This document shows positions 1-6,912 of a stretch of DNA of 64,000 nt, piece after piece (the first letter of the stretch is position 1; every line of letters starts with the position of its first letter). The DNA is taken from the NCBI GenBank assembly GCA_020025675.1, contig JAHHRS010000001.1:4812-68811 (forward strand), written 5' to 3'. Origin of the DNA: Oscillospiraceae bacterium. GTDB taxonomy: Bacteria > Bacillota > Clostridia > Oscillospirales > Oscillospiraceae. The position numbers and the translations under genes are program-made. A model generated the notes under the pieces. That model ran no database searches. It was given only the letters and a program-made list of their open reading frames with translations, and was not told the origin of the DNA.

Positions 1-1
1 G

Positions 2-1069
2 AGAACTCAGGCATGGGGCGCTATATCAAAGGACTATGCAAATGCACTGTGCATTTCCGGAACTCACGGTAAAACCACCACCACTTCCATGTGTACCCAT
101 ATCCTTATGGCTGCCGACAAAGACCCTACCGTTATGATAGGCGGAACTCTGCCTCTGCTTAATGCCGGTCACAGAGTAGGTCACGGCAATACCATAGTTA
201 TGGAAGCCTGTGAATATTATAATTCTTTCCTGTCATTTCACCCCACTGTGGCGGTTATTTTGAATATTGAAGCAGATCATCTGGATTTCTTCAAAGACCT
301 TGAAGATGTGGAGCGCTCTTTCAGAGCTTTTGCGTCCAGAGTTCCTGACGACGGTTATATAGTGGCCAATAGTGATGATAAAAACACTATGGATACCTTA
401 AAAAATATTGACAGGAAGGTTATAACCTTCGGTCTTAACAGCAGGGCTGACGTTTACGCAAGAAATGTACGCTATATAGGCGCAAACAGTGAGTTTGACA
501 TTATGTATAAGGGCAGACTCTTTACCAAGGTTACCCTTCATGTTCCCGGCGAACACAATGTTAAGAATGCACTTGCCGCTACCGCAGCTGCCATCTGTCT
601 TGGTGTTAAGCCCTATGCGGTAAAGTACGGCCTTGCCGGATTTACGGGAGCGGGCAGACGTTTTGAGTTTAAGGGGAAATTTAACGGTGCCGATGTTTAT
701 GATGACTATGCACACCATCCGGGGGAGCTGGGAGCACTGCTGGATGCCGTGGAAAAACTCAACTATAAACGTATAGTACTCGTATTCCAGCCCCATACTT
801 ATACAAGAACCGCCGCCCTTTTTGACGATTTCGTGGAGCAGCTAAAGAGACCTGATGTATTGCTGCTGGCTGAAATTTTTGCGGCCAGAGAGAAGAATAC
901 AATAGGAATTTCTTCTGCATCACTGGCTGAAAAGGTGGATGGGGCCAGCTTCTTCGGCAGCTTCCCCGAGCTTGAAGACGAGCTTAGACGAATTGCGTCG
1001 CCGGGTGACATTATTCTTACCGTTGGCGCAGGCGATGTGTATAAAATCGGCGAAAATCTTGTAAAGTAA
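2..1069 (+). CDS. murC: UDP-N-acetylmuramate--L-alanine ligase, 5'-truncated by window edge
   Basis: The frame is open from base 2. The upstream in-frame translation gives ISGTHGKTTTTSM, the Mur ligase P-loop. The rest matches the MurC middle and C-terminal domains (EADHLDFF, DDYAHHP). Confidence 0.9.
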   Translation, partial: RTQAWGAISKDYANALCISGTHGKTTTTSMCTHILMAADKDPTVMIGGTLPLLNAGHRVGHGNTIVMEACEYYNSFLSFHPTVAVILNIEADHLDFFKDLEDVERSFRAFASRVPDDGYIVANSDDKNTMDTLKNIDRKVITFGLNSRADVYARNVRYIGANSEFDIMYKGRLFTKVTLHVPGEHNVKNALAATAAAICLGVKPYAVKYGLAGFTGAGRRFEFKGKFNGADVYDDYAHHPGELGALLDAVEKLNYKRIVLVFQPHTYTRTAALFDDFVEQLKRPDVLLLAEIFAAREKNTIGISSASLAEKVDGASFFGSFPELEDELRRIASPGDIILTVGAGDVYKIGENLVK

Positions 1070-1131
1070 CCTAAAATTTTCAGACCTTCCATTTGCATTA
1101 TGTTAAGATTAGCTAAAATCACAAAAAATTG

Positions 1132-1160
1132 TTGACAAGTGTAATTCACTAAACTATAAT
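1132..1160 (+). promoter_or_regulatory. Consensus sigma-A promoter for the met leader/metNIQ transcript
   Basis: TTGACA (1132-1137), 17-nt spacer, TATAAT (1155-1160). Both hexamers match the consensus perfectly. Confidence 0.8.
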
Positions 1161-1193
1161 CGAGTTAAAGTTTTGAAAGGAGCGTACTGAGCT

Positions 1194-1298
1194 ATGCGTT
1201 TCGTATCTAACAGCAACAACAGCATGATGGCTATGATGTACATGATGAACATGTGCATGATGATGCGCGCGCAAAAATCCAGTTCGCCGACTTTCTAA
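1194..1298 (+). CDS. Met-codon-rich leader peptide (34 aa, MRFVSNSNNSMMAMMYMMNMCMMMRAQKSSSPTF)
   Basis: AAGGAG at 1177-1182 lies 11 nt before the ATG. Ten of the 14 codons at positions 11-24 are AUG. The ORF lies between a consensus promoter and a strong terminator directly upstream of metN. It is too short to appear in the ORF track. Confidence 0.6.
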   Translation: MRFVSNSNNSMMAMMYMMNMCMMMRAQKSSSPTF

Positions 1299-1334
1299 AA
1301 GCCATCAAAAGAAAATTTTTAATTTAAATTTTCG

Positions 1335-1375
1335 GGGCCGGGAAGCAAGCGAGCTTCCCGGCCCTTTTGTTTTTT
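1335..1375 (+). terminator. Intrinsic terminator / candidate attenuator between leader ORF and metN
   Basis: 12-bp perfect GC-rich stem GGGCCGGGAAGC (1335-1346) / GCTTCCCGGCCC (1353-1364) with a 6-nt loop, then TTTTGTTTTTT. The metN start is only 33 nt downstream. Confidence 0.85.
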
Positions 1376-1408
1376 CTAAAATACAAACTATTTTTGGAGA
1401 TGATTTAA

Positions 1409-2398
1409 GTGATTGAGCTAAAGCACATGTGCAAGACCTATAAGACTTCAAGCAGAGATATTGTTGCGCTGGACGACATCAATCTAAAAATTGAGGACGG
1501 AGATATATTCGGAATAATAGGCCTCTCCGGAGCAGGTAAAAGTACCCTTGTAAGGTGCATAAATCTGCTTGAAAAGCCAACTTCCGGTGATGTTATCATA
1601 GACGGAAAGAACATTACAGCCCTCAAGAAAAAGGAACTGTTAAAGCTCAGGGAATCAATAGGAATGATATTTCAGGGCTTCAATCTTCTGGAACAGAGAA
1701 ACGTTCTGAAAAACGTGTGCTTCCCTATGGAGATAGCAGGCGTAAATAAGAAAGAAGCCAGGGAGCGAGCAAAGGAGCTGCTTAAAATCGTCAGCCTTTC
1801 AGACAGAGCGGAGTCCTATCCCTCACAGCTCTCCGGCGGACAGAAACAGAGGGTGGCCATAGCAAGAGCCCTTGCAATGAAACCTAAATATCTTCTATGT
1901 GATGAAGCCACTTCTGCTTTAGACCCAACTACTACCCGCTCAATACTGGAGCTTCTGAAGGAAATTAACCAGAAAATGGGTGTTACCATTGTTGTTATAA
2001 CCCATGAGATGAAGGTTATAGACCAGATATGCGACAGAGTGGCGGTTATAGACAACAGCCGCATAGCTGAGGAGGGTAAGGTGAGTGACGTTTTCGCAAA
2101 GCCTAAATCAAGCATAGCAAGAGAACTTATTATCCCTCACGACAGAGCTGTTTTTGACACAAAGGGCGGCAGAAAGCTCCGCCTTACCTTTAATAATCAG
2201 TATTCAAACAGACCTGTAATCTCCGATATGGTGCTGGAGTGTCAGGCTCCGGTAAATATCCTCTTTGCAGACACAAGAGAATTTGAAGGAGCTATTTACG
2301 GACATATGATAATTGAACTTCCCAATGACAGCCGACAGGAAGAAAAAATAATTTCATGGCTCAAAGAGAGCCATATACAGTGGAGAGAGGAGGATTAA
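1409..2398 (+). CDS. metN: Methionine ABC transporter ATP-binding protein
   Basis: GTG start after GGAG. Walker A GLSGAGKST, signature LSGGQKQRV, Walker B LLCDEATSALD, and a C-terminal NIL (MetN regulatory) domain. Confidence 0.93.
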   Translation: MIELKHMCKTYKTSSRDIVALDDINLKIEDGDIFGIIGLSGAGKSTLVRCINLLEKPTSGDVIIDGKNITALKKKELLKLRESIGMIFQGFNLLEQRNVLKNVCFPMEIAGVNKKEARERAKELLKIVSLSDRAESYPSQLSGGQKQRVAIARALAMKPKYLLCDEATSALDPTTTRSILELLKEINQKMGVTIVVITHEMKVIDQICDRVAVIDNSRIAEEGKVSDVFAKPKSSIARELIIPHDRAVFDTKGGRKLRLTFNNQYSNRPVISDMVLECQAPVNILFADTREFEGAIYGHMIIELPNDSRQEEKIISWLKESHIQWREED

Positions 2399-2401
2399 GC
2401 C

Positions 2402-3082
2402 GTGCTTTCAGAAATGTTTTATAAGCTTTGGGATAATAATCTTATCCAGATGGGCATATGGGAAACAATTTACATGACGGTGATTTCAACAACCGTTGCC
2501 TACCTTTTAGGTTTGCCTCTGGGTATTATACTTAATGTTACCGATGATAAGGGAATTTGCCCTATGCGCTGGCTTAACAGAGTGCTTAGCGTGGTTGTAA
2601 ACTTCTTCAGAAGCATACCTTTTATAATCCTTATGATAGCAATGCTCCCTGTGGCAAAGCTCATAGTTGGTACATCATTAGGAAATAAAGCCACCATTGT
2701 AATGCTTATAATAGCTGCTGCCCCTTATGTGGCAAGAATGGTGGAGAGTTCCATTAAGGAGGTGAACTCCGGCATTATTGAAGCCGCCCAGTCAATGGGC
2801 GCAAGTAACTTCCAGATAATCTGGAAGGTGCTCCTTCCTGAGGCAAAGCCCTCCCTTATAGTTGGAGCAGTCATATCCATGGTAACTGTTCTCGGTTACT
2901 CTGCAATGGCAAGTACCATAGGCGGAAAAGGTCTGGGTCAGATAGCCGTTGTGTACGGACACCAGAGAGGAAATTCCGACATCATATGGATATGTGTATT
3001 TTTGACTGTTATTATCGTTCAGATAATTCAGGAGTTGGGTATGTACATTGCCCGACGGACAGATAAAAGAGTTAGAAACTAA
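2402..3082 (+). CDS. metI: Methionine ABC transporter permease
   Basis: GTG start 3 nt after the metN stop, with a GAGGAGGA RBS. Polytopic BPD-type permease in MetI position. Confidence 0.9.
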   Translation: MLSEMFYKLWDNNLIQMGIWETIYMTVISTTVAYLLGLPLGIILNVTDDKGICPMRWLNRVLSVVVNFFRSIPFIILMIAMLPVAKLIVGTSLGNKATIVMLIIAAAPYVARMVESSIKEVNSGIIEAAQSMGASNFQIIWKVLLPEAKPSLIVGAVISMVTVLGYSAMASTIGGKGLGQIAVVYGHQRGNSDIIWICVFLTVIIVQIIQELGMYIARRTDKRVRN

Positions 3083-3108
3083 GAAAGAAACATTTGGAGG
3101 AAATGAAA

Positions 3109-4014
3109 ATGAAAAAAACACTTGCAATTATTTTAGCACTTGTCCTTGTCTCAGCCCTTTTTGTGGGCTGCGGTGCAGAAAAAGCACCTGAGGAAACCCC
3201 TGCACCTGAAAATGCCGCCCCTGAAACCGCTGCAAACGAAACCGAAGAAAACTCTGCTGCTCCCGCAGAAGGCCTTGAAGTAATAAAGGTAGGCGCAAGC
3301 TCCGCTCCTCACGGCGTTATTTTGGAGCAGGTTAAGCCTGTTCTGGCTGAGGCAGGCTACGACCTTGAGATTGTTATTTTTGATGATTACATTCTCCCCA
3401 ACACCGCCCTCAATGACGGCGAACTTGACGCAAACTACTTCCAGCACACTCCTTACCTTAACTCCTTCAACGCTTCAAACAACATGGAGCTTGTTGCTGT
3501 TGAGCCTGTTCACTACGAGCCTTTCGGCATCTACGGCAAGGGCATTTCCGCTCTGACTGAGCTTAAAGAGGGCGCAACCATTCTTATCCCTGCTGATGAC
3601 TCCAACGAGACCAGAGCTCTTCTTCTGCTCCAGCAGGAAGGCTTGATTGAGCTTCCCGAAGGCGTTACCGCTGAGGGCAGTGTTACCACTCTGGACATTG
3701 TAAATGCAAACGGCTACGATGTTCAGGCTATTCCCGCTGACACTGTCTCTGCCCAGCTGGAGAACTCCGCAGACGGCACCATCGCAGTTATAAACGGCAA
3801 CTACGCAATTCAGGCCGGACTCAATGTTGCAGATGCACTGGCACTGGAGGCTGCTGACGGCGATGCAGCTCTGACTTACGCAAATGTTATTGCCTGCCGC
3901 AAGGGTGATGAAAGCAGCGACAAGATTCAGGCTCTCGTAAAAGCTCTTCTCACCGATGATGTTAAAAACTTCATGGACACTGAGTTCAACGGCGCAGTAA
4001 AAGCAGTATTCTGA
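3109..4014 (+). CDS. metQ: Methionine-binding lipoprotein (NlpA/MetQ family)
   Basis: I prefer the ATG at 3109 (GGAGG at 3096-3100, 8-nt spacer) to the track start at 3094. Lipoprotein signal with lipobox LFVGC and a low-complexity linker. The NlpA-family body includes ANYFQH and GNYA motifs. Confidence 0.9.
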   Translation: MKKTLAIILALVLVSALFVGCGAEKAPEETPAPENAAPETAANETEENSAAPAEGLEVIKVGASSAPHGVILEQVKPVLAEAGYDLEIVIFDDYILPNTALNDGELDANYFQHTPYLNSFNASNNMELVAVEPVHYEPFGIYGKGISALTELKEGATILIPADDSNETRALLLLQQEGLIELPEGVTAEGSVTTLDIVNANGYDVQAIPADTVSAQLENSADGTIAVINGNYAIQAGLNVADALALEAADGDAALTYANVIACRKGDESSDKIQALVKALLTDDVKNFMDTEFNGAVKAVF

Positions 4015-4115
4015 TTATAAATAACAGAAACAGAAAAAGCCTGTTTCAGCAGCTTAGCGCATTTTTTGTCTAAAATTATGGGGTCACTTCAGTGTACCCG
4101 GTGAAAAATAAATAT

Positions 4116-4187
4116 GGGTCTGATAGTGTGAAATTTGTCCGCAACAGCGGACAAGTTTAGCACAGCTCAGACCCCGGCCTTTTGTTT
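4116..4187 (+). terminator. Long compound hairpin with U-tract (first of two tandem terminators after metQ)
   Basis: Outer stem GGGTCTGA (4116-4123) / TCAGACCC (4167-4174). Inner hairpin TTGTCCGC (4135-4142) / GCGGACAA (4147-4154). Followed by TTTTGTTT (4180-4187). Confidence 0.5.
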
Positions 4188-4222
4188 AAAGCCCTGTCCG
4201 CAAGGACAGGGCTTTGCTTTTT
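4188..4222 (+). terminator. Intrinsic terminator after metNIQ
   Basis: AAAGCCCTGTCC / GGACAGGGCTTT, a 12-bp stem with a GCAA loop, then GCTTTTT. Confidence 0.85.
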
Positions 4223-4269
4223 ACGCACGTAGTTGTTTATAAAATTTTTGTCCGGCGGCATTTCCGGTA

Positions 4270-4298
4270 TTGAAAACCCTCTGCTTACAAATTATAAT
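4270..4298 (+). promoter_or_regulatory. Sigma-A type promoter for the 4357 gene
   Basis: TTGAAA (4270-4275), 17-nt spacer, TATAAT (4293-4298). Confidence 0.6.
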
Positions 4299-4356
4299 GT
4301 ATTCAAAATCAGGCTTTAAGCGTTGAATGGATATATAAGGAAAGAGAGATGTTTTT

Positions 4357-4860
4357 ATGAGCTCCGAAAAAAGGTACACAGCCGTTGCCCGAGTGGTTAG
4401 TATTGATACAACGAAGAAGGATCTTTCAGACGATAATTCGTACAGAAACACGGCCTTTGTGGAATTTACGGATTATAAAGGACAGCCGGCAAAGGGCTCT
4501 TTTACACTTCCCAAATCACCGCTGTACACTAAAATCAGGGTAAACAGTCAAGTGGAAATAGAGTATGATGATAGTATCATACCAGGCGGTTATACTGTTT
4601 TTCTTCTCAATCCGGAGCTTTATGAGCGTATACCTACTGAAGAGGAGCTGGCACCATACAGGCGCAACAGTAAGAGAGTGTTAAAGCAGAGTCTTATGGG
4701 CATTGCGGCGCTGTTCATAGCGGCAGTTCTTTACGGAATTACGAAAAGCTTTTTGGTGATTGCAGCAATGGTTGTTGTAACGTACTTTATTATGAAGTAC
4801 GGCTCGGAGCAGGAAAAGGCGGACTCCGACAAGTTCCTCAGCTGGTATGATGAGGAGTAG
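4357..4860 (+). CDS. Hypothetical membrane-anchored protein (soluble N-terminal domain, two C-terminal TM helices)
   Basis: 167-aa ORF with its own promoter and a downstream terminator. Hydrophobic stretch LMGIAALFIAAVLYGITKSFLVIAAMVVVTYFI. I recognise no family. Confidence 0.6.
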   Translation: MSSEKRYTAVARVVSIDTTKKDLSDDNSYRNTAFVEFTDYKGQPAKGSFTLPKSPLYTKIRVNSQVEIEYDDSIIPGGYTVFLLNPELYERIPTEEELAPYRRNSKRVLKQSLMGIAALFIAAVLYGITKSFLVIAAMVVVTYFIMKYGSEQEKADSDKFLSWYDEE

Positions 4861-4908
4861 AAATGGCTTGCGGGATAACAGAATTTTGAAAAATCAGGCT
4901 AAATAAAA

Positions 4909-4952
4909 AGCTACCGGGAATCGTTAAAAGGGCGGTTCCCGGTAACTTTTTT
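4909..4952. terminator. Bidirectional terminator between convergent genes
   Basis: Stem TACCGGGAA (4912-4920) / TTCCCGGTA (4936-4944), flanked by an A-tract upstream and TTTTTT downstream. Confidence 0.7.
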
Positions 4953-5010
4953 ATAAATCTTTTGTGTGGCCTTATAACAGCATTTTGCCACGGAACCTTT
5001 TATAGAAAGC

Positions 5011-6912
5011 TTAATCACGGCAGGTAAAAAGTATTACCTGTCGTTTTTTAGCTATCTGCCTTAATAGTTCTATGGCCTGATCATAACGCTCACGGTCAAA
5101 ATTAACCAAAGCATCATCAATTATCAGCGGGCAGGTTTCTCCCTTAGGAAGAGCAAGCTCGCATACGGCCAGCCGTACAGCCAGATATAAAAGGTCGTAA
5201 GTGCCGCTGCTCAAATACTGGGAACCTCTTGCAACCACGTCTTCTCCTGTGCGGGTAGAGGCGGAGAAGTCACGGTTAATAAGCACATCCTCATACTTTC
5301 CGCCTGTTACGGCGGACATATATTTTGCTGCCAGCTTACCTATTTCAGGTGAAAACCGGGTTTGCATTTCTTTGTCTGCTTCTGCAAGAGTGTTTATTGC
5401 AAGAGTGATGGCTGAGTATTCACCTTGGACCTGCTCGTATACCTCTTTCATACAGCCAAGCTCACTGGAGAGTACCAGCGGATCCCCCATGGCGGAGAGT
5501 CTGCCCTTCAGACCCGCTATCTGGGCGGATATTTGTTCTGCACGCTCTCTTGCGGAAGACAGTTCCCGGCTGAGCCTTGCGGCTTCGGAATTGCCGCCTG
5601 CAAAGTCAAGCTGGGAAAGAGCCTCGTTTTCAAGCTCAGCCTGTTTTTCGTGGGAAAGTGCATAGGCCTCTCTTGTCTCGTATTCATATTGCTCTGCTTC
5701 CTGTACGGCATTCCAAAGCTGGGAATGTTTATCCAGAATAGGATATATATCATTGATTTCCGATGCCCGGTATTTTTTCAGTATAAGCCTTGTTTGTTCT
5801 TTAGCGTTTAGGTCTGCCTGTTTAAGCTTAGCGTAACGCAGTAAAAGAACAACCGCAGCTACACAAAAAACAGCTGCCGAAATTATAAAGACAACATTAG
5901 ACTTTGAGGCATACAGTGCAGCAAACACTACGGCCAAAATAAAGCAGATAATGGCAGGTAATATTACGAAAAAGCTGTTGCTTCTTTTTTCCAGAGCCTT
6001 TAATTGCTCAACGTCCTGCTGAACCTCGCTTTGAAGCTCAGCGTTACTCCTGTCACCGAAACGGCTGGAACGCAGTTCCTCACGCCTTATGGACAGCTGT
6101 TCCATGGCTTTGTCATGTTCCTCACTGCGCTCTTTAAGCTCGGTTCGTCCTGTACTAAGGCGATTTAAAGAATCCTTCCGCTGACGCTTGCGGCTTTCGG
6201 TGACGCCAATTTCAAGATTTAAGCAATCCTGTCTGGCTCTTAAAAGCTGGGCCTCCATTTGCTCCAATGTGTTGAGAGCACCGCTCATCTCGTCTAACTC
6301 TTGTTGAGTCTCTTCAATTTTTTCCTCAAGTTCCGGTAAATACCCACGGCGGTTATAACGACGCTGACGCTGCCATGAGCGAAGCCGTTCATCACACTCT
6401 GTGTATGAACTTCCTTCCTCTCCGGTGGCTACTATGGCGCTTATTCTTTTTTCAAGTTCGGGACTTCCGTTTACTGCAACCTCGCCCTGCGGAATGTAGG
6501 CACTGCGATTAAAAACGTCTTTAGATACCCCTGTCAGTTCTTCGCCGGCATTTCCTGAATTTAATCCCTCAACCTTGGTGTTAGTTCCTGTATATACAGC
6601 TGAAAACTCCCTCATAGGGGCATTTTTTGCTCGGGAGCTGCGTGTTATTGTTATATCGCAGCCGTTTGAAACCAACTCCATACTGCCCTCCATTGGTGCA
6701 CCGGACCAGGGGGCATAGCGAAGTTTATCGGGCAGAGAACCCTTCTTAGCTCTCTCTGAGCTGTCAATGCCGTATAGCATGGCCCGTATAAAGGCACACC
6801 AGGTGGTTTTGCCGCTCTCATTGGGAGCGTTTATTATATTGAGTCCGTCGTGAAACTTCAGACTCTCGTTTTGCAGTTTTCCAAAGGAGGCTGTGGCTTT
6901 AGTAATCTTCAT
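5011..6912 (-). CDS. SbcC/YhaN-like AAA ATPase with coiled coil and central transmembrane hairpin
   Basis: N-terminal Walker A NAPNESGKTT and C-terminal Walker B LIIDDALVNFD. Long charged coiled-coil regions are interrupted by two hydrophobic helices (FFVILPAIICFILAVVFAALY, VVFIISAAVFCVAAVVLLL). The start overlaps the upstream nuclease gene by 14 nt. Confidence 0.8.
   Translation of the reverse strand: MKITKATASFGKLQNESLKFHDGLNIINAPNESGKTTWCAFIRAMLYGIDSSERAKKGSLPDKLRYAPWSGAPMEGSMELVSNGCDITITRSSRAKNAPMREFSAVYTGTNTKVEGLNSGNAGEELTGVSKDVFNRSAYIPQGEVAVNGSPELEKRISAIVATGEEGSSYTECDERLRSWQRQRRYNRRGYLPELEEKIEETQQELDEMSGALNTLEQMEAQLLRARQDCLNLEIGVTESRKRQRKDSLNRLSTGRTELKERSEEHDKAMEQLSIRREELRSSRFGDRSNAELQSEVQQDVEQLKALEKRSNSFFVILPAIICFILAVVFAALYASKSNVVFIISAAVFCVAAVVLLLRYAKLKQADLNAKEQTRLILKKYRASEINDIYPILDKHSQLWNAVQEAEQYEYETREAYALSHEKQAELENEALSQLDFAGGNSEAARLSRELSSARERAEQISAQIAGLKGRLSAMGDPLVLSSELGCMKEVYEQVQGEYSAITLAINTLAEADKEMQTRFSPEIGKLAAKYMSAVTGGKYEDVLINRDFSASTRTGEDVVARGSQYLSSGTYDLLYLAVRLAVCELALPKGETCPLIIDDALVNFDRERYDQAIELLRQIAKKRQVILFTCRD

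Follow-up and report, generated by a model that had tools for sequence, protein, structure and literature searches.

How is a methionine importer operon controlled when neither of the usual methionine-responsive RNA elements stands in front of it? This question is raised by metNIQ in a 64,000-nucleotide stretch of contig JAHHRS010000001.1 (hereafter the window, from whose first letter all positions are counted), which derives from an uncultured Candidatus Limivicinus-like Oscillospiraceae bacterium. Methionine genes of Bacillota are, according to the textbook, under the control of S-box riboswitches, which respond to S-adenosylmethionine (SAM), and of Met T-boxes. An earlier note on this DNA, made from the letters alone, had seen neither of them and had proposed that a short open reading frame (ORF) rich in methionine codons forms, together with a terminator, a candidate Met-sensing leader-peptide attenuator. 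The ORF, its Met run and a covarying terminator, antiterminator and anti-antiterminator support this proposal. We consider it probable, at about 80%, that the leader is a ribosome-mediated transcription attenuator which couples metNIQ to the supply of charged elongator tRNA-Met.

The leader comprises the following elements.

1132-1160, plus strand: sigma-A type promoter with TTGACA at 1132-1137, a 17-nt spacer and TATAAT at 1155-1160
1176-1182, plus strand: Shine-Dalgarno (SD) sequence of the leader, AAAGGAG, 11 nt ahead of the ATG at 1194
1194-1298, plus strand: leader ORF of 34 codons, MRFVSNSNNSMMAMMYMMNMCMMMRAQKSSSPTF, with the stop codon TAA at 1296-1298
1224-1265, plus strand: regulatory Met run, codons 11-24 with 10 AUG, read from the sequence
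1334-1375, plus strand: intrinsic terminator, consisting of the hairpin at 1334-1365 and the U-tract at 1366-1375 (TTTGTTTTTT)
1334-1346, 1347-1352 and 1353-1365, plus strand: 5' arm, loop (6 nt) and 3' arm of the terminator hairpin, in which 10 of the 13 pairs are G-C

The promoter, the SD sequence, the 34-codon ORF with ten AUG among codons 11-24 and the GC-rich terminator with its U-tract ahead of metN were all described in the earlier note and are all present, the hairpin being measured at 1334-1365 with 13 pairs. With a score of 12/12 the promoter is the top one among 15 promoter-like sites between 900 and 4500. The GTG start codon of metN at 1409 follows the U-tract after 33 nt, as had also been noted, and the promoter scan detected no promoter-like site between the leader terminator and metN, in line with the earlier view that this gap leaves no room for a separate metN promoter.

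Methionine is encoded at leader codons 11, 12, 14, 15, 17, 18, 20, 22, 23 and 24, that is at 10 of 14 positions. The probability of finding at least 10 Met in 14 codons is ~7e-13 at the Met frequency of the coding sequences in the window (3.1%) and ~7e-15 at the frequency of the ATG trinucleotide, and such a run is unique in the 64-kb window on both strands. A chance origin of the Met run is excluded. No family match was obtained for the leader peptide in NCBIfam.

A scan for MetN in one genome per GTDB species yielded 80 orthologous loci, of which the closest (95% identity) belongs to Candidatus Limivicinus and the others to Oscillospiraceae, the Oscillibacter/Dysosmobacter group, Lachnospiraceae and further taxa. 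At 41 of the 80 loci a short Met-run ORF is located within a few hundred nucleotides upstream of metN and is followed by a terminator, the arrangement for which the earlier note had suggested looking in relatives. The window and 20 other distinct leaders (21 sequences in total) constitute a close clade, in which the leader ORFs span 28-37 codons, with 5-10 variable codons before the run and 8-11 Met codons within 14-16 codons, and the terminator begins 14-36 nt past the leader stop. An SD-like sequence precedes the start codon in all 21 leaders, a pair of -35 and -10 boxes together with the SD sequence is visible in nearly all of them, and TTGACA/TATAAT-like boxes occupy the same position at most related loci. 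Differences in ORF length are multiples of three. The Met codons and the RNA pairings described below are retained, in contrast to the freely varying N- and C-terminal residues and ORF length. More distant groups retain the Met run with different flanks, as in MIVNRFGMMMCMMDMGMMTMP... of the Oscillibacter/Dysosmobacter group and in the Lachnospiraceae-like leaders MFAA.AMNNSMMMAMCGMMMVMCRMF... and MNQSKTMQMNMAMMCGMMMNMCRMF....

In all contexts inspected, the leader is followed by genes for ABC_tran+NIL, BPD_transp_1 and Lipoprotein_9 proteins, i.e. by metNIQ. The upstream neighbours differ, with murC in the window and a LacI-family gene or an acyl-carrier-protein gene elsewhere; hence, the element travels with metNIQ. 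One leader variant was found on 466 metagenomic contigs and another on 223. Among 5.8 billion protein clusters, 266 of 32-68 aa matched the leader profile (E <= 1, with a query alignment headed by a 43-aa homologue); they lack Pfam domains as well as informative names, one being labelled only 'hypothetical protein'. At least 266 unnamed small-protein clusters belong to the leader family.

Three observations were made alongside these searches. A metagenome scan with the core 15-mer ATGTGCATGATGATG gave no leaders among the matches listed; in environmental metagenomes (L094-L173) this 15-mer mostly hit the GTP cyclohydrolase I motif (E)AxHMCMMMRGV, besides random matches, which calls for caution in pattern searches with the core of the Met run. 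A contig labelled Bacteroidaceae bacterium (L044, CAVFGM010000121.1) carries a leader ORF with flanks identical to those in two Oscillospiraceae metagenome-assembled genomes (L009 and L010) and was probably mis-binned. At the loci L003, L006 and L007, 235-364 nt separate the leader stop from metN, compared to ~80-120 nt elsewhere; the extra sequence is G+C-rich with many hairpins and might represent inserted repeats or a second regulatory element.

The terminator and the structure competing with it are formed by the following segments, named C to F in the order of their positions.

1279-1296, plus strand: segment C, the 3' end of the leader ORF and core of region 2, which pairs with E or with the upstream segment A
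1300-1307, plus strand: segment D (AGCCAUCA), just 3' of the stop codon, which pairs with E or with the upstream segment B
1311-1333, plus strand: A/U-only spacer hairpin between D and the terminator, enclosed by the antiterminator
1336-1355, plus strand: segment E, comprising the terminator 5' arm, the loop and the first three bases of the 3' arm
1353-1365, plus strand: segment F, the terminator 3' arm
1281-1287 with 1349-1355, plus strand: antiterminator helix 1, AGUUCGC with GCGAGCU, from folding and alignment
1291-1296 with 1340-1345, plus strand: antiterminator helix 2, CUUUCU with GGGAAG, from duplex prediction and folding
1301-1303 with 1336-1338, plus strand: antiterminator helix 3, GCC with GGC at the base of the terminator 5' arm, from duplex prediction and folding

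The terminator helix E:F is paired to 98% in the 21 sequences, with two-sided compensatory changes in 8 of 12 pairs; none of 500 shuffles was as good, and RNAalifold recovers the hairpin from the full MAFFT alignment. Its competitor is an antiterminator in which the end of the ORF region (1279-1308, ~28 nt) pairs with the terminator 5' arm, the loop and the first bases of the 3' arm. Helix 1 of this C:E pairing (columns 26-32 and 96-102 of the MAFFT alignment) is paired to 95.7%, and one of its pairs occurs as GC 9 times, as AU 8 times and as GU twice. Columns 27 and 91 both track column 101, the pair with the terminator partner being GC in 11 and AU in 10 cases. Such three-way covariation is expected of competing helices. 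Sliding the partner strand of C:E lowers the overall pairing from 88% to at most 65%, and duplexes of cognate segments are more stable than non-cognate ones (-15.9 vs -13.7 kcal/mol on average), with 2 of 5000 permutations as good. The earlier note had found no convincing classical antiterminator and had therefore left Rho or another mechanism as possibilities. Pairing, covariation and duplex tests show that a classical antiterminator, C/D:E, exists, and with it neither a Rho-dependent nor an exotic mechanism is needed.

The position of the antiterminator relative to the ORF is also conserved. The stop codon lies inside its 5' strand, and 15 nt separate the last AUG from position 1281. In most relatives segment D immediately precedes the stop codon, and small hairpins of differing sequence fill the spacer between D and the terminator in many of them. 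Almost all leaders use TCG as the Ser codon within segment C, although TCG is the rarest Ser codon in the long ORFs of the window (4.2%), which points to selection at the nucleotide level. The five codons after the Met run (R/C/H-A-Q-K/N-x; 1266-1280 in the window, the same codons in L001-L076) are strongly conserved and locally rare, with GCG making up 10% of the Ala codons and CAA 15.5% of the Gln codons; the third base of the Ala codon after the run varies synonymously, as do the Ala and Gln codons in Ala-Gln. They may act as a spacer of footprint length or as a site of transcriptional pausing behind the hairpin formed by the Met run, or they may reflect a constraint on the peptide. From the last AUG to segment C they correspond to the downstream reach of the ribosome footprint, so that C can emerge even if the ribosome stalls on the last Met codon.

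Region 2 has further partners upstream, where three more elements were located.

1225-1232, plus strand: segment B (UGAUGGCU), the first codons of the Met run, which forms the anti-antiterminator with D and is the equivalent of region 1 of the trp attenuator
1174-1190, plus strand: segment A, the ribosome binding site (RBS) of the leader with SD sequence and spacer, complementary to C
1175-1179 with 1291-1295, 1182-1184 with 1285-1287 and 1186-1189 with 1280-1283, plus strand: A:C pairs, from folding
1236-1244, 1245-1249 and 1250-1258, plus strand: hairpin H within the Met run, with AUG-UAC-AUG, the loop and CAUGUGCAU, from the minimum free energy structure

In the window, B:D is a helix of 8 bp with -13.2 kcal/mol. 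Its cells are paired to 81.8%, compared to at most 44.5% after sliding, and 4 pairs show two-sided changes; the covariation score is 0.29 vs 0.16 in shuffles (0/500). For this count the B fragments were anchored on the landmark GAUGG and D was taken from the MAFFT columns, so neither was picked by pairing. Cognate duplexes reach -14.0 kcal/mol and non-cognate ones -10.3 kcal/mol (0/5000 permutations), and the matching sets include GGCU/AGCC, GGCUGAG/CUCAGCC, GGGUAUGA/UCAUACCC, GGAUAUGA/UCAUAUCC and GGAG/CUCC. The complementarity between 1225-1232 and 1300-1307 that had been pointed out before is thus a real, covarying helix, equivalent to 1:2 of trp; contrary to the earlier note, it is not the only notable one.

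The second partner is the RBS. Cognate A:C duplexes average -14.5 kcal/mol and non-cognate ones -10.8 kcal/mol (0/5000 permutations), while no difference between cognate and non-cognate duplexes was observed for the negative control A:E. Compensatory sets are ACUG/CAGU, GAACCAC/GUGGUUC, GCGAACCG/CGGUUCGC, CGGGUCAU/AUGACUCG, UGAGUCA/UGACUCA and GCGAGC/GCUCGC. The evidence for A:C is energy-based, as MAFFT does not align the RBS spacer and the start of the Met run in register, which precludes a column count. Applied to the full MAFFT alignment, RNAalifold found the Met-run hairpin and the terminator and missed the long-range helices, which is explained by the same lack of register and by the mutual exclusion of the helices. 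Leaders of the Oscillibacter group and several singletons differ in sequence but follow the same logic of A:C and C:E pairing.

Hairpin H has the consensus AUG-YRC-AUG, five loop bases, C-AUG-UGC-AU and is paired to 100% in the 21 sequences. The variable codon in H is always YRC (Tyr, Cys, Arg or His); pairing in H explains this restriction as well as the fixed Cys codon in the run. A function of H as a transcription-pause hairpin is speculative, and so is a role in pausing for the conserved CGCGCGCAAAAA that follows it. The conserved Cys codons raise the possibility of additional cysteine sensing; they appear better explained by RNA pairing, through the YRC rule in H and through UGC in helix B of the Oscillibacter group.

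We folded the leader RNA with and without masked ribosome footprints, as the earlier note had proposed, and obtained the terminator and antiterminator states of a trp-type logic. The leader RNA folds far more stably than shuffled versions of it (z = -4.9). When no ribosome is present, the predicted structure comprises A:C, hairpin H and the terminator. A ribosome whose A site contains the stop codon covers C and D, and the terminator is again obtained. A stalled ribosome with a codon of the Met run in its A site, combined with nascent RNA that extends to 1357, gives the three-part antiterminator; this was the outcome at 3 of the 4 stall positions simulated, and at all 4 once a second ribosome was placed on the RBS.

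These states suggest the following course of events. Transcription would start at ~1167, ~7 nt past the -10 box, and a ribosome would load on the strong RBS and translate the 34-codon leader. When Met-tRNA is plentiful, the ribosome would reach the stop codon at 1296-1298, where its footprint would cover C and D (1279-1308); the terminator at 1334-1365 could then fold, and transcription would end at the U-tract, before metN. When Met-tRNA is scarce, the ribosome would linger in the AUG run at 1224-1265, with B melted or occluded and C and D free to pair with the emerging terminator 5' arm, the loop and the first 3'-arm bases, which would prevent the terminator from forming and allow read-through into metNIQ. 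Without any ribosome, C and D would be captured by B or A and the terminator would form, so that the default state would be off. Translation of the ORF, the stalling, the kinetic competition between the helices and the response to methionine are what we infer from the sequence elements and the predicted folds.

Several observations weigh against this model. In 1 of the 4 simulated stall positions, free A captured C and thereby defeated antitermination. Equilibrium folding of the full-length RNA favours the terminator even when a ribosome is stalled in the run, and therefore the switch must be kinetic. In the trp attenuator 3:4 is likewise more stable than 2:3, and a kinetic choice is normal for attenuators. 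A:C and B:D cross, and as C and D are separated by only 2 nt, both helices cannot form fully. The changes in hairpin H are one-sided only and AUG repeats are intrinsically self-complementary; H is a conserved pairing potential, not a proven structure. In Lachnospiraceae-type leaders the alternative pairings are less clear. When region 2 was compared with the whole terminator, several sequences showed weak shuffle z-scores, since a self-complementary hairpin offers partners to any G+C-rich sequence; this test was replaced by the comparison of cognate and non-cognate duplexes and by the counts in alignment columns. Finally, the sequences are related, so the permutation statistics overstate their independence.

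The role of A:C may lie in default termination, in making a queued ribosome a requirement for read-through, or in silencing the translation of terminated leader RNA. Taken further, region 2 would pass two checkpoints, being held either by its partner in the Met run, from which a stall frees it, or by the RBS, from which an initiating or queued second ribosome frees it. We regard this extension as tentative and rather doubtful. If it were true, read-through would need a queue of ribosomes and would integrate a shortage of elongator Met-tRNA with the capacity for initiation (fMet-tRNA, translation competence), and later A:C pairing would end the wasteful translation of an 11-Met peptide.

What replaces the Met-run ORF at the remaining loci bears on the signal that is sensed. 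In the window, a scan of positions 1-6000 with the Rfam models at E <= 10 returned no SAM riboswitch of the SAM-I to SAM-VI or SAM/SAH families, no T-box and none of the amino-acid leader families (His, Leu, Thr, Trp, Leu/phe and others) in 1090-1410, just as the earlier note had expected for S-box and Met T-box; the matches in 1090-1380 were spurious, sub-threshold ones to snoRNA, Vault and mmgR. Nor did any Rfam family reach its gathering score in the leaders of 20 leader-bearing loci. Of the 39 loci without a Met-run ORF, 25 (within L047-L080) contain the T-box motif GGUGGUACC(A/G)CG ~95-210 nt upstream of metN. A search for this motif at the 41 leader-bearing loci found none, and no locus among the 80 has both elements. 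Four T-box loci pass the high gathering score of Rfam (RF00230), and in the one T-box that was aligned (L056, 2696-2938) the specifier reads AUG. The T-box loci belong to Oscillibacter-like genomes with orthologous metN. Hence, leader ORF and T-box appear functionally equivalent at orthologous loci, and the replacement points to tRNA charging as the signal. The Met T-box (RF00230) shares with the leader its position, the downstream operon, the presumed signal (charging of tRNA-Met) and a terminator/antiterminator output. It differs in that it reads uncharged tRNA by RNA-tRNA contacts, without translation, whereas the leader has no T-box sequence or stem I and, according to the model, needs a translating ribosome. 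As a separate observation, a match to the NiCo (nickel/cobalt) riboswitch at the Rfam gathering score was noted at locus L048 (2273-2351, minus strand), upstream of the metN region.

We also considered whether the ORF is an independent small-protein gene with a terminator of its own, whose Met/Cys-rich peptide could, acting in trans, for instance bind metals, serve as an oxidant sink or store methionine; expression of metNIQ would then depend on constitutive leak-through or on another promoter. Such a peptide would account for its conservation over many lineages, for the gene calls in many assemblies and for the retention of Ala-Gln after the run despite synonymous third-base changes, and trans-acting leader peptides such as peTrpL are known (PMC7298713). 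Yet it is the Met codons and the RNA pairings that are kept, while termini and length vary freely; the 3' end of the coding sequence covaries with the terminator loop and with the RBS and has the rarest Ser codon fixed in it; the ORF accompanies metNIQ in every case, irrespective of the upstream neighbours; a T-box substitutes for it in sister taxa; and the region between terminator and metN lacks a promoter-like site. An independent gene is therefore very unlikely, and a role in trans alongside the one in cis is possible.

Attenuation by a translating ribosome can also be set against a switch that operates without translation, i.e. an unrecognised riboswitch or a tRNA- or protein-binding element, in which the AUG run itself would be the sensor, for instance by pairing with the CAU anticodon of tRNA-Met. 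The fold z-score of -4.9, the covariation of several helices and the AUG specifier of the T-box at orthologous loci would all fit. A strong SD sequence at a proper distance from a conserved start codon would not be expected, though, nor would a frame that is kept by 3n indels, Met codons that are all in one frame and a stop codon that is always at or beside C/D. Moreover, the region gives no Rfam model match even at E <= 10 and has no conserved core resembling a ligand pocket beyond the alternative helices. We assign a very low probability to this explanation.

Just as improbable is an arrest of the nascent peptide by a small molecule such as free methionine or SAM, of the TnaC/CGS1 type, with a signal other than Met-tRNA shortage. 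The conserved R/C/H-A-Q-K/N after the run, with its synonymous Ala and Gln codons, hints at the peptide-level constraint that an arrest would impose. This motif is, however, not found in the Oscillibacter and Lachnospiraceae groups, which retain the Met run, and the logic would be inverted, as stalling at high methionine or SAM would expose region 2 and induce the importer; the T-box replacement, again, points to tRNA charging. Finally, a His-codon-rich leader ORF on the minus strand (MRAHHHAHVHHVHHSHH..., 1274-1149), in which the reverse complement of the AUG run resembles hisL with 10 His codons in 14, was rejected as an artefact, since CAU inevitably arises as the reverse complement of AUG, the ORF begins with TTG and has neither SD sequence nor promoter, it runs into the convergent murC at its 3' end, no his genes are nearby, and the U-tract, promoter, SD sequence and covarying helices fit the plus strand.

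As an attenuator, the leader resembles trpL, hisL, leuL, pheL, thrL and ilvL in its short ORF with a run of the cognate codon and its terminator before the first structural gene. It shares with the enterobacterial attenuators the exclusive helices 1:2, 2:3 and 3:4, the masking of region 2 by a ribosome at the stop codon, and a terminator that is thermodynamically stronger than the antiterminator, with a kinetic choice between them. It differs from them in its specificity for Met, whose single codon doubles as the start codon, in an operon that encodes an importer instead of a biosynthetic pathway, and in its host, a member of the Clostridia, where T-box and S-box control dominates. Further differences are the bipartite region 2, with the leader RBS as a second partner (A:C) that crosses B:D, and the antiterminator, whose pairing extends beyond the 5' arm to the terminator loop and the upper part of the 3' arm. 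There is no similarity in sequence or Rfam model between the enterobacterial attenuators and this leader.

Leader peptides for methionine have been proposed before, so the idea is not without precedent; the earlier note knew of no described family of such attenuators. A 20-aa MetL with 3 Met codons was proposed upstream of metBA in C. jejuni (PMC3847290); initiation of its translation was seen by Ribo-seq, and a further Met-enriched short ORF precedes the gene of a methionine-binding protein (PMC11955535). In S. lividans, metL (MSTTSDRTPATEATTTPGARCMCRRMCAF) was proposed upstream of metNIQ; it is leaderless and without a typical intrinsic terminator (PMC8079986). In the accessible parts of these reports the MetL leaders are proposals, for which a methionine response is not reported (PMC3847290, PMC11955535, PMC8079986). 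They resemble the leader described here as Met-enriched short ORFs ahead of methionine genes, and the Streptomyces one also precedes metNIQ and mixes Met with Cys codons. They differ in having 3 Met codons, compared to 8-11 here, and the accessible text reports no analysis of alternative structures or covariation. A comparison of the leader family profile with S. lividans MetL by hhalign detected no similarity in sequence (probability 0.25%). The relation is one of functional analogy only.

Ribosome-mediated attenuation as such occurs in Gram-positive bacteria and can replace T-boxes, as with the Leu-rich attenuator peptide of ilv-leu in S. aureus (PMC5794164) and the His leader peptides upstream of hisS/hisZ, which replace T-boxes in Firmicutes (PMC2965389); these systems concern other amino acids, are found in Bacilli and are unrelated in sequence. 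In mycobacteria, polycysteine leaderless short ORFs are reported to attenuate the downstream operon (bioRxiv 10.1101/834739). They likewise use codons of a sulfur amino acid, and differ by their Cys runs, by being leaderless and by their occurrence in Actinobacteria. In a literature search outside subscription-only papers, no Met leader was found to be described in Bacillota.

The operon downstream of the leader consists of the following features.

1409-2398, plus strand: metN, an ABC ATPase with a NIL domain, with a GTG start and the SD sequence GGAG at 1396-1399
2402-3082, plus strand: metI, a permease, by best NCBIfam match
3094-4014, plus strand: metQ, a substrate-binding lipoprotein, by best NCBIfam match
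4187-4216, plus strand: intrinsic terminator of the operon, 3' of metQ

The best NCBIfam matches are MetN, MetI and MetQ/NlpA, with scores under the equivalog cut-offs, which makes this an identification at the family level; the metN homologues carry the Pfam domains ABC_tran and NIL. Upstream, the convergent murC faces the leader with its 3' end. A weak Rfam match to rnk_pseudo at 4116-4223 (34.8 bits vs a gathering score of 55) corresponds to the intrinsic terminator after metQ, and a near-consensus promoter, TTGAAA-17-TATAAT, is present at 4270-4298 ahead of an ORF at 4357-4860.

Leader-peptide attenuation has seldom been documented in Bacillota, and for methionine it has only been suggested, in Campylobacter and Streptomyces. 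With 8-11 AUG codons and four covarying helices the present family is a clear case. While the idea of a Met leader peptide had already been proposed, what appears new, judged from comparative sequence data, is a Met-specific, metNIQ-linked family of leader-peptide attenuators in gut Clostridia, and the pairing of the RBS in a helix that crosses the classical 1:2 helix is possibly a new twist. The family may serve as a model for the annotation of RNAs and short ORFs, explains a recurrent 'hypothetical' short ORF and is a candidate for a compact Met-responsive switch; cultured carriers are Neopoerus faecalis CMD_1836, Clostridium sp. OF09-36 and Clostridium sp. OM02-18AC. Rfam, Pfam and genome annotations do not include the family, which is widespread in abundant Clostridia of the human and animal gut and whose alternation with T-boxes at orthologous loci is a natural experiment in the turnover of regulators that would read the same signal.

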